Source: Escherichia coli (GTDB lineage Bacteria > Pseudomonadota > Gammaproteobacteria > Enterobacterales > Enterobacteriaceae). From it: a stretch of 64,000 nucleotides of DNA. The notes under the pieces are model-generated. The model was not told the origin of the DNA and did no database searches. It saw only the letters and a program-made list of their open reading frames with translations. Of this stretch, positions 39,945-41,732 are shown piece after piece; the stretch's first letter is position 1, and every line of letters starts with the position of its first letter. The position numbers and the translations under genes were made by a program. The stretch is from assembly GCF_011045215.1 (NCBI RefSeq), contig NZ_CP049201.1. One strand, 5' to 3'.

Positions 39945-41732
39945 ATGGCGAAACTGATAAATGTATCGGCGTCCACTGAGGAGAGAATGACGCCAGGGGA
40001 GAGGAGGGTGGCTTCACGACTGGAGAGCTTTCTGCATGATGACTGCCTTGTCTGGTACGATATCCCGGTGGGACGGAAAAACCGACATCCGGATTTTGTC
40101 ATTATTGACCCGGATAACGGGCTGGTATTTCTGGAGGTCAAGGACTGGACTGTATCCACATTACGTAAAGCAAATCAGGAGCAGGTTACACTGGAAACCG
40201 ACGGTCTTCTGAAATCAGAAATAAATCCGCTGGTACAGGTTCGTCGTTATGCCTGTGATACGGTTAATGCCTTACCTGCTGACCCGTGCTTACGGCAGAA
40301 TGACGGTCAGTATAAGGGACGGCTGAACCTGGCCTGGGCGTATGGTGTGGTGTTTACCCGCATTACCCGTCAGCAACTGAAGGCACTGACAGGGAATGAT
40401 GAGAATGCGGTGGAAAAGATTTTTCCTTCAGCACAGACAATCTGTCAGGATGAAATGACGCAGTCTGTTTTACCTGAGGTATTCCGGCAAAAAATTGCCG
40501 GGATGTTTACCACGGGGTTCAGAACCCGGGTGACACCCCGGATGAGAGATATTCTGCGCGCCCATCTGTTTCCTGAAGTGACCGTGAAACAGAACTCACA
40601 AATCAAAATCATGGATATTCAGCAGGAGATTCTGGCCAGAAATATAGGTGACGGGCATCGTGTCATTCATGGTGTGGCCGGTTCCGGAAAAACCATGATT
40701 CTTTTGTTCCGTTGCCTTTACCTGGCTGAAACCACGTCCGGAAAGATTCTGGTGTTGTGCTACAACATTACCCTGGCCAGCTATCTGCGGGAATGCATTG
40801 AGGCCAGAGGGCTGAGGTCACGGGTTACGGTATCTCATTTTCACAGCTGGTGTGCCTCAATGGCAAAACGCCACGGTATTCAGGTGACGGCAGACAGAAA
40901 AGAATATCCTGAGAAATGCTTCAGTGCATTGGAAGAGGCCGTGAACAGCGGAAAAATCACCCAAACCGGATATGATGCTGTACTGGTGGATGAAGGGCAT
41001 GATTTTGACAGTCGCTGGCTGGCCCTGATTGCCCGTCTGTTTGATAACGCATCCCGTTCACTGCTCCTGATGTACGATGATGCCCAGTCCATTTACCGAC
41101 GGGAGCGGGCCCTGAACTTTTCTCTGGCCAGTGTGGGGATTCAGGCGCAGGGACGCACTTCTGTCCTGCCGGTCAATTACCGTAATCCGAAACGCATTCT
41201 GCACTTTGCTTATGCATTCTCCCGCGAGTATTTTGAAAAACATCAGAACCGTGAAATACCACTCGTTCAGCCACAGGCGGGTGGTGAAGAGGGCACAGAG
41301 CCGGAAATCCTGCGTTGTGCTTCTGAACGTGATGAAGCCAGACAGGTTGCAGACTGGCTGGAGAAACGCCATGCCCTGTGCGGTCACTGGAGTGATATGG
41401 CTGTTCTGTGTCCGGCAGAGTTTTCAGTGAAACAACTGAAAGAGGTTATGACACAACGCGGGATACCTTTTGCCACCTGCTTTGACAGTGAAGGTAAGAA
41501 GACATACTCGCGACGTAAGGATGTGGTGCATTTACTGACGTACCAGAGCAGCAAGGGGCTGGAGTTCCCGTATGTGGCAGTTATCAATGCGTCTTTCGTT
41601 CACTCTGGTGCAGCGGATGAGTCTGAAGTGATTCCGGTGCTTTATGTGGCGTTTACCCGGGCAACCCGTGAATTACTGGTGACCTGTTACCGTGAAAACA
41701 GTATCAGCCGCCACCTTGAGGATTTTGCATAA
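39945..41732 (+). CDS. NERD-domain nuclease fused to UvrD-like SF1 helicase
   Basis: 595 aa; N-terminal NERD-like segment VWYDIPVGRKNRHPDFVIIDPDNGLVFLEVKDW; helicase motifs GVAGSGKT (Walker A), VLVDEGHDF, TYQSSKGLEFPYV, VAFTRATREL. Confidence 0.8.
   Translation: MAKLINVSASTEERMTPGERRVASRLESFLHDDCLVWYDIPVGRKNRHPDFVIIDPDNGLVFLEVKDWTVSTLRKANQEQVTLETDGLLKSEINPLVQVRRYACDTVNALPADPCLRQNDGQYKGRLNLAWAYGVVFTRITRQQLKALTGNDENAVEKIFPSAQTICQDEMTQSVLPEVFRQKIAGMFTTGFRTRVTPRMRDILRAHLFPEVTVKQNSQIKIMDIQQEILARNIGDGHRVIHGVAGSGKTMILLFRCLYLAETTSGKILVLCYNITLASYLRECIEARGLRSRVTVSHFHSWCASMAKRHGIQVTADRKEYPEKCFSALEEAVNSGKITQTGYDAVLVDEGHDFDSRWLALIARLFDNASRSLLLMYDDAQSIYRRERALNFSLASVGIQAQGRTSVLPVNYRNPKRILHFAYAFSREYFEKHQNREIPLVQPQAGGEEGTEPEILRCASERDEARQVADWLEKRHALCGHWSDMAVLCPAEFSVKQLKEVMTQRGIPFATCFDSEGKKTYSRRKDVVHLLTYQSSKGLEFPYVAVINASFVHSGAADESEVIPVLYVAFTRATRELLVTCYRENSISRHLEDFA

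Follow-up and report, generated by a model that had tools for sequence, protein, structure and literature searches.

The gene examined here lies in a 64,000-nucleotide stretch of the Escherichia coli contig NZ_CP049201.1, which is referred to below as the window. There, an uninterrupted open reading frame (ORF), which forms a complete coding sequence in the ORF list, encodes a protein of 595 amino acids in which a nuclease-related domain (NERD) is joined to a UvrD-like helicase of superfamily 1 (SF1). This NERD-UvrD gene is located within a type VI secretion system (T6SS) cluster, where tssF, tssG, tssJ, and tssE lie upstream and a gene for a protein of 101 amino acids and an ImpA/VasL gene lie downstream. 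An earlier reading of this DNA from its letters alone (hereafter the sequence-only reading) had proposed the fusion of a NERD nuclease to a minimal UvrD-like SF1 helicase. Indeed, this architecture is borne out by matches to Pfam and PADLOC models, by the conservation of motifs, and by two confident structure models. The best nucleotide match to the gene is found in E. coli strain C5 (98.6%), whose protein is 99% identical to the 595-amino-acid product in a direct BLASTP comparison.

Start site, domains, and family of the NERD-UvrD protein

Most RefSeq records for E. coli place the start of the gene 14 codons downstream (position 39987), which yields a product of 581 amino acids. An alignment of 62 sequences, consisting of the 595-amino-acid protein and 61 full-length homologues (27–59% identity) that were retrieved by searching 1.84 billion cluster representatives, retains Met1-Ala2 in at least 90% of its members. 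The upstream ATG is likely to be the true start, because this Met-Ala pair is family-wide, a Shine–Dalgarno-like sequence precedes the ATG (Table 1), and the first β-strand is predicted by structure modeling at residues 3 to 5. Judged from these signals, the start given in RefSeq is probably 14 codons too short. Farther upstream, the hairpin listed in Table 1 is likely to be a (bidirectional) terminator, and the NERD-UvrD gene would therefore have its own transcript.

Table 1. Positions of the NERD-UvrD gene, its sequence elements, and surrounding features in the window.
Feature	Positions	Strand	Basis or remark
NERD-UvrD gene, 595 amino acids	39945..41732	+	ORF list
Shine–Dalgarno-like AAGGTG	39934..39939	+	5 nucleotides before ATG 39945; from sequence
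G+C-rich hairpin, 12 bp, T-runs on both sides	39875..39905		terminator scan and sequence; between upstream pseudogene and NERD-UvrD gene
N-terminal NERD domain, restriction-endonuclease PD-(D/E)xK fold, residues 1–215	39945..40589	+	
Predicted nuclease active site P49-D50 ... E64-V65-K66	40089..40142	+	conservation in 62-sequence alignment
SF1A helicase core, residues 216–595, domains 1A and 2A only, 1B/2B almost absent	40590..41729	+	
Motif I / Walker A GVAGSGKT, residues 243–250	40671..40694	+	G243, G246, G248, K249 invariant in alignment
Motif II / Walker B DEGH, residues 349–352	40989..41000	+	D349, E350 invariant in alignment
Motif VI YVAFTRA, residues 567–573	41643..41663	+	T571, R572 invariant in alignment
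Variable cargo, ~4.0 kb (YdcA-like, PD-Lambda-1-like, and NERD-UvrD genes)	37782..41797	+	comparison with RM14721 empty site
YdcA-like small protein	37952..38353		
PD-Lambda-1-like membrane GIY-YIG/T5orf172 nuclease gene	38509..39752	+	PADLOC PD-Lambda-1, E=5.8e-88 (distal ORF)
OLD-family ATPase/Toprim nuclease	44001..45662	+	PADLOC Old, E=1.7e-50; starts ~480 nucleotides after VasL, 2.3 kb after NERD-UvrD gene
IS21 element, istA	49589..51235	-	between OLD gene and restriction-modification system
IS21 element, istB	48817..49815	-	between OLD gene and restriction-modification system
IS4-family transposase	51335..52750	-	between OLD gene and restriction-modification system
Type I restriction-modification system	53656..59894	+	hsdR split, then hsdM 57136..58770 and hsdS 58767..59894
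Helicase-like ORF, 1093 amino acids, directly after hsdS	59901..63182	+	weak matches: PbeA E=1.7e-8, RadD-like E=4.7e-8

The N-terminal domain matches the Pfam model NERD (PF08378) at residues 17 to 108 (E=2.9e-10, score 41.1) and carries a literal PD-(D/E)xK motif, P49-D50...E64-V-K66. Among the 62 aligned sequences, the putative catalytic residues D50, E64, and K66 are kept in 62, 59, and 56, respectively, and the auxiliary residues E19 and Q98 in 58 each, as might be expected if the active site were intact; on this conservation, it appears to be so. The sequence-only reading had described a NERD pattern of 120 amino acids ending in EVKDW. The NERD assignment stands and EVKDW is present (residues 64–68), but this pentapeptide does not mark the end of the domain, the fold of which reaches to about residue 215. 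Instead, EVKDW is the catalytic ExK element, because it supplies the (D/E)xK half of the conserved PD-(D/E)xK motif.

The N terminus thus belongs to a nuclease family rather than a non-nuclease one, and a restriction-endonuclease-like α/β fold is found. In structure models, its closest relatives are predicted to be restriction-fold nucleases, namely the Schlafen core, Can2, NucS, and Shedu. A NERD domain serves as the catalytic nuclease of the defense effector ZwsA, which cleaves RNA. There, E535, D567, E580, and K582 are required, these residues have the same E...D...ExK layout, and their mutation abolishes function.

The remainder of the protein is matched in Pfam by AAA_19 and UvrD-helicase at residues 226 to 385 and by UvrD_C (twice) and UvrD_C_2 at residues 407 to 583. 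Motifs I, II, and VI, which had been recognized from the sequence, prove to be part of a full set of UvrD-type motifs. The others are the Q motif (Q227), motif Ia (LVLCYN, about residues 268–273), motif III (DDAQSIY, 378–384, with Q381), motif IV (NYRN, 411–414, with R413), and motif V (SKGLEF, 536–541, with K537 and G538). The key residues of all of these motifs are invariant or nearly so in the alignment.

The description of the helicase as compact is likewise correct. The model PF00580 (UvrD-helicase) is matched at positions 11 to 98 and 209 to 255, such that the approximately 110 model positions in between correspond to only about 23 residues (316–338) of the protein. Similarly, PF13361 (UvrD_C) is matched at positions 2 to 100 and 280 to 349, and the approximately 180 positions in between are reduced to about nine residues (512–520). 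Sequence matches in the PDB jump in the same manner, wherein residues 343 to 512 align with UvrD 214 to 377 and residues 518 to 585 align with Rep 542 to 615. In the domain map of UvrD and Rep, these gap regions are occupied by the accessory domains 1B and 2B. The fact that the alignment gaps fall on 1B and 2B indicates that the motor is a bare 1A+2A core, and the four-subdomain layout 1A/1B/2A/2B is not present.

An AlphaFold2 model computed on the 62-sequence alignment is of high confidence (predicted local distance difference test 91.9, predicted template modeling score 0.89). When compared with the PDB by Foldseek, the modeled structure retrieves UvrD, PcrA, and Rep at the top, with human SLFN11 among the matches. 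The helicase part of the model appears closest to Rep and UvrD, and predicted resemblances in fold extend to AddAB, RecBCD, and AdnAB and to Upf1 and Schlafen. A sequence search of the PDB returned generic UvrD, PcrA, and Rep matches only, with no solved relative that carries a NERD fusion.

The protein belongs to a sequence family that is already catalogued. PADLOC model PDLC01087 ('C3a187 NERD+UvrD') is matched over residues 1 to 594 (model positions 1–556 of 559) with E=2.5e-141 and 470 bits, and the N-terminal domain alone matches this model with E=7.9e-39. In contrast, all NCBIfam models for repair helicases score below their curated cut-offs, wherein the best matches reach 37 to 64 bits against cut-offs of 419 to 1168. 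For PcrA, the values are 63.7 and 911 bits, and HelD, UvrD, Rep, and others are sub-threshold as well. Because these scores fall so far short, the protein is not an ortholog of any named housekeeping helicase (UvrD, Rep, PcrA, HelD, helicase IV), and no curated NCBIfam family claims it.

The family comprises 11,546 representatives at E≤1e-3 and 567 clusters (50% identity) at E≤1e-30. Most relatives at the stricter threshold are about 600 amino acids long, align end to end, and come from many phyla. RefSeq and NCBI name these proteins '3'-5' exonuclease', 'NERD domain-containing protein', or 'nuclease-related domain-containing DEAD/DEAH box helicase'. The first of these names is unsupported, because no exonuclease domain was detected in the protein by Pfam.

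Genomic setting within and beyond E. coli

Strain RM14721 carries the same T6SS cluster, wherein tssE is directly followed by the gene for the 101-amino-acid protein and the site is therefore empty. Homology to this empty site stops at position 37781 of the window and resumes at 41798, which identifies the approximately 4.0 kb in between as variable cargo. The cargo includes a PD-Lambda-1-like gene that, relative to the intact 414-amino-acid gene of strain C5, has lost one nucleotide near 38861/38862 and is thereby split into ORFs of 148 and 285 amino acids. This change could reflect either a pseudogene or a sequencing error. By annotation, the gene is frameshifted in strain NCCP 13963 as well.

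The interval between tssE and the T6SS gene that follows it seems to receive defense genes as cargo. In other strains this interval holds extra IS110 copies, and in strain C5 the helicase 3′ end, the gene for the 101-amino-acid protein, and VasL are partially duplicated in tandem at the site. The ImpA-N/VasL gene itself (42158..43522, forward strand) is a continuous ORF of 454 amino acids in the window, and RefSeq breaks VasL up into three pseudogene fragments in C5 and RM14721 and, for NCCP 13963, lists two fragments and a truncated coding sequence with the VasL domain. Elsewhere in the T6SS cluster, positions 24000 to 28000 of the window have a G+C content of 0.35 to 0.37, versus about 0.55 in the flanks, around ORFs 24235..26145 and 26114..26890. 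Judged by composition, this segment is probably horizontally acquired effector/immunity cargo.

Beyond VasL, an OLD-family gene, insertion sequence (IS) elements, and a type I restriction-modification (RM) system follow (Table 1). Annotations of several other E. coli strains place type II Zorya genes within the matched region, and in their stead the feature names listed for others show an 'AAA family ATPase' or 'ATP-dependent nuclease'. This alternation among strains makes the OLD region look like a second defense hotspot. Within the RM system, the two hsdR ORFs correspond to profile positions 5 to 636 (53656..55617) and 668 to 1099 (55720..57072) of 1107, and hsdR is probably inactivated. As far as gene content can tell, the surroundings of the NERD-UvrD gene, with PD-Lambda-1-like, OLD, type I RM, and IS genes, constitute a defense island.

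Presence of the gene in E. coli is patchy. Some part of it occurs in 1047 of 5426 complete genomes, and at least 80% of it occurs in 614 (~11%). Approximately 430 further genomes have a truncated copy, and the gene is present in about 11 to 19% of genomes. In O157:H7, O111:H8, O121:H19, and related lineages, only the first 797 nucleotides remain and an IS66-family transposase is annotated at this point (for example, EDL933, NZ_CP008957.1 3944523-3945319). Because the match ends at nucleotide 797, at IS66, the gene is a pseudogene in these lineages.

Placements in E. coli are overwhelmingly chromosomal (1078 of 1093), and the remaining 15 are on plasmids. One plasmid copy (92.9% identity) is solitary and is located beside a RelE/ParE pair. 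The tssJ–tssE segment is found in only 160 E. coli genomes, and O104:H4 retains the genes for the GIY-YIG nuclease, the NERD-UvrD protein, and the 101-amino-acid protein although most of the T6SS has been deleted. Among intact E. coli copies, the ratio of nonsynonymous to synonymous divergence (dN/dS) is 0.10 to 0.15, with dS values up to 0.24. The gene therefore combines accessory, mobile, island-like genomic behavior with purifying selection, and it is well conserved and probably functional.

To place these observations in a wider frame, one genome per species was scanned, which gave 80 distant loci (30–44% identity) from Gamma-, Beta-, and Alphaproteobacteria, Cyanobacteria, Bacillota, Acidobacteria, and Rokubacteria. 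ORFs were called within 8 kb on either side, and all 1056 were clustered against one another. No conserved partner gene exists among these loci: the helicase was called in 72 of them, and the largest family of neighbors occurs in six. Homologues of the E. coli GIY-YIG, 101-amino-acid, and VasL proteins are absent near the 80 distant copies, OLD-like genes occur at two of the loci, and the T6SS proteins of the window have no homologue there save for one generic AAA+ match. Thus, the gene is autonomous and has no obligatory partner.

A functional link to the T6SS was considered and rejected, given that T6SS homologues are missing near the distant copies, an allele with an empty site exists, and the gene survives deletion of the T6SS. 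One inspected locus on a Ralstonia solanacearum megaplasmid (CP023017.1 102706-104544) adjoins a toxin/regulator (toxin-antitoxin) pair and is about 5 kb from a 'type VI secretion protein', a proximity that could be a coincidence or a second placement adjacent to a T6SS.

Among 28 immediate neighbors of distant homologues, which were hand-picked, partly by protein size, and have no matched control, six to seven gave strong defense matches in PADLOC, and these matches are suggestive only. They include a type IIG RM enzyme, a SIR2 protein of the pAgo-associated kind, a PD-T4-6-like kinase, and a PDC-S02 candidate nuclease. A type IV restriction enzyme is also a neighbor, and its cluster recurs in five of the distant loci. 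An OLD nuclease lies immediately downstream of the Acidovorax homologue (gap of ~14 nucleotides), and a weak Nhi/AbiO-like helicase is among the PADLOC-matched neighbors. Fic, HipA-like, DUF2130-like, and YhcG-like neighbors occur sporadically; their identities were read from the sequence, and only YhcG/PDC-S02 was confirmed.

Plasmid records contain 135 matches, 112 of which are on Ralstonia megaplasmids. Other carriers are plasmids of E. coli, Citrobacter, Pantoea, and Nostoc and a conjugative Vibrio plasmid, on which the homologue adjoins an N6-methylase and an HNH endonuclease.

Proposed function and competing explanations

We consider it rather probable that the NERD-UvrD protein works autonomously, as a nuclease and helicase in one polypeptide, to protect the cell against DNA that invades from phages, plasmids, or both. 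The sequence-only reading had proposed a factor for DNA-targeting defense or repair, which agrees with our results, and the genomic context tilts this choice toward defense. This lean arises because presence in E. coli is patchy, empty and occupied sites are polymorphic, IS elements have disrupted the gene in several lineages, plasmid copies exist, and PD-Lambda-1-like, OLD, and type I RM genes are neighbors. Moreover, the homologues are not part of housekeeping repair operons but stand alone in contexts that vary, and about one-quarter of the 28 sampled neighbors have defense matches.

We infer a role in defense, DNA as the substrate, a polarity of movement, and a coupling of the two activities that would work as follows. 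The C-terminal SF1A motor, with its two RecA-like domains 1A and 2A only, would bind single-stranded or end-containing nucleic acid and translocate along it with ATP. By homology with UvrD, Rep, and PcrA, the expected direction is 3′ to 5′. Translocation might then feed or position a strand at the NERD nuclease (E19, D50, E64, K66), where metal-dependent cleavage would degrade the invading DNA. In UvrD, the 1B and 2B domains provide duplex contacts and autoregulation, and 2B is autoinhibitory in both UvrD and Rep. Because the autoinhibitory 2B domain is missing, regulation is suggested to lie elsewhere. Loss of 1B and 2B may point to a translocase in which regulation or the choice of substrate has shifted to the N-terminal domain.

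A broader proposal, of which we are somewhat more doubtful than confident, is that NERD plus a minimal SF1A motor constitutes a widespread, partner-free anti-phage or anti-plasmid family that is the UvrD-type counterpart of Nhi, wherein loss of 1B and 2B hands the selection of substrates to the Schlafen-like nuclease domain. Such a family might recognize replication or conjugation intermediates instead of specific sequences. If the role in defense is true, then a common one-gene immunity module would be added to the E. coli repertoire.

Several observations weigh against a role in defense against invading DNA. The only strong PADLOC match is to an in-silico candidate for a CRISPR type III accessory that derives from three loci. 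Our search of open-access PMC articles and bioRxiv retrieved only studies of other NERD or Nhi proteins and in-silico mentions, and no experimental study of the NERD+UvrD family. The neighbor sample described above is small, size-selected, and without a matched control, and many flanking genes are housekeeping genes, including miaA (twice), a heptosyltransferase gene, and YebC. The Ralstonia homologues have about 40% identity; ten listed records of ~40.1% identity are located at ~100 to 110 kb, and other listed records are located elsewhere. Thus, for at least part of the complex, these copies look conserved within the lineage and not mobile. A tblastn search of a phage collection yielded no full-length homologue and three weak partial helicase matches, and so there is no sign of spread by phages. 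Lastly, RNA is a possible substrate, because the NERD domain of ZwsA cleaves RNA and the predicted folds resemble Schlafen and Upf1.

This last point underlies an explanation that would still be one of defense. The NERD domain might cut phage or host RNA, with the SF1 motor acting on RNA, as an effector in the manner of ZwsA, Schlafen, and Upf1. We regard an RNA-targeting effector of this type as unlikely.

No more probable, in our estimation, is an accessory enzyme for DNA repair or recombination that processes ends or forks and serves the host genome, like a small AddA, RecB, or AdnB. The combination of an SF1A motor with a PD-(D/E)xK nuclease is indeed the logic of AddAB, RecBCD, and AdnAB, which are found among the fold matches. 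The gene is also under purifying selection, and the homologue occurs at similar coordinates in the ten Ralstonia records noted above, among the many megaplasmids that carry it. However, the NCBIfam models for repair helicases score far below their cut-offs, and no repair operon or conserved partner emerges among the 80 distant loci. Restriction to about 11 to 19% of E. coli genomes, frequent inactivation by IS elements, the existence of an empty-site allele, and placement among defense genes all speak against a service to the host genome.

Less probable still is that the protein is a non-autonomous component, acting either with the PD-Lambda-1-like GIY-YIG nuclease, with the downstream OLD protein in a Gabija-like manner, or as a CRISPR accessory. 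The GIY-YIG and NERD-UvrD genes do accompany each other in E. coli, including where the T6SS has been deleted. In the window, however, the helicase gene is intact but the GIY-YIG gene is frameshifted, and a strong hairpin stands between them. Moreover, the NERD-UvrD copy on an E. coli plasmid is solitary, and none of the 80 distant loci contains the GIY-YIG gene. On the same grounds, namely a frameshifted partner, a solitary plasmid copy, and distant loci from which the partner is missing, a two-gene system of the NERD-UvrD and PD-Lambda-1-like genes is rejected.

Partnership with OLD draws on the arrangement in Acidovorax and on partial matches to GajB (E ~1e-21), but OLD recurs at only two distant loci. 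As for the CRISPR alternative, E. coli is not known to have a type III CRISPR system, and no cas gene recurs among the neighbors. Nor is there a type III CRISPR-Cas neighbor in the window or in five annotated E. coli loci, where T6SS, GIY-YIG, OLD, IS, and RM genes are found. Two in-silico studies do put NERD+UvrD genes near CRISPR loci, one of them as far as a figure legend tells (Altae-Tran et al. 2023, which names UvrD and NERD as putative CRISPR auxiliary genes).

Equally improbable as a separate explanation is a function in the competition or maintenance of mobile elements, through attack on rival plasmids or addiction, for although copies reside on plasmids of E. coli, Citrobacter, Pantoea, Vibrio (conjugative), and Nostoc and toxin-antitoxin genes are adjacent in several places, nearly all E. 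coli placements are chromosomal and the mechanism overlaps with the degradation of foreign DNA proposed above, from which it is inseparable in silico.

Comparison with known systems

The closest known relative is C3a187 itself, which is the same family, has the same two-domain architecture, and is matched over its full length. C3a187 is cluster 187 of Shah et al. 2018 (RNA Biol, PMC6546367), which is based on three genes located beside type III-A/B CRISPR cassettes. Its representative is Dole_0738, for which the function 'NERD+UvrD' was predicted solely in silico (PMC6546367). The E. coli gene differs in that it is cargo of a T6SS cluster and defense island, with no CRISPR context. The protein therefore belongs to the catalogued C3a187 sequence family, outside the type III CRISPR context by which that family was defined, and the PADLOC label 'CRISPR type III accessory' is unfit for most contexts of the family. 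The family is large and already catalogued, and its kind, in which a single protein serves as a nuclease-helicase for defense, is known. New here are only the variant with a minimal SF1A core and its context in E. coli.

Three other systems that resemble the NERD-UvrD protein in part were considered and rejected. GajB of Gabija is likewise a UvrD-type SF1A ATPase in phage defense, its profile matches residues 335 to 516, and an OLD-family gene is located 2.3 kb downstream of the NERD-UvrD gene. The match to GajB is partial, however, and the OLD gene at 44001 is two T6SS genes away and has counterparts at only two of 80 distant loci, so Gabija was set aside. AddA, RecB, and AdnB carry their nuclease at the C terminus, keep 1B and 2B, are about twice as long, and function in heteromeric complexes encoded by operons. 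Identity with these proteins is rejected on the basis of NCBIfam scores far below the cut-offs and missing partner genes.

The third system, RTasNERD-Hel of PADLOC (UG34-associated, Mestre et al. 2022), shares the order of an N-terminal NERD and a C-terminal helicase as well as a defense context, and is weakly matched (E=3.8e-15; N-terminal domain alone, E=9e-5). That protein accompanies a UG/Abi reverse transcriptase, whereas no reverse transcriptase gene adjoins the NERD-UvrD gene. The weak match and the lack of such a neighbor led us to reject this identity.

The most instructive comparison is with Nhi. The Nhi protein of Staphylococcus epidermidis (SERP2475) is a single PD-(D/E)xK and SF1 protein that defends staphylococci and needs both activities. 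It prevents the accumulation of phage DNA and has been proposed to sense phage replication intermediates. The NERD-UvrD protein resembles Nhi in that one polypeptide holds an N-terminal PD-(D/E)xK nuclease followed by an SF1 helicase, and in that the gene stands alone, spreads horizontally, occurs on plasmids, and has defense genes as neighbors. The two differ in their motors. That of Nhi is a DUF2075 (PF09848) helicase of the SF1B type, like Dda, Upf1, and DNA2, with an extra C-terminal domain, whereas that of the NERD-UvrD protein is SF1A.

Consistent with this difference, the protein does not contain a DUF2075-type helicase, wherein its match to PF09848 is sub-threshold (E=0.0034). The PADLOC model for Nhi (PDLC02372) gives no match to the N-terminal domain at E≤1e-3 and is not among the best 25 of 35 whole-protein matches, although a match weaker than 3e-5 on the helicase is possible. 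Membership of the Nhi family is rejected, given the SF1A motor and the lack of a match to the Nhi model. By analogy, the best reading is that the NERD-UvrD protein works like Nhi without belonging to its family. If it does act in defense, the protein would offer a compact model for how a minimal SF1A motor is coupled to a restriction-fold nuclease without recognition of sequence or modification, a question that Nhi raises as well.

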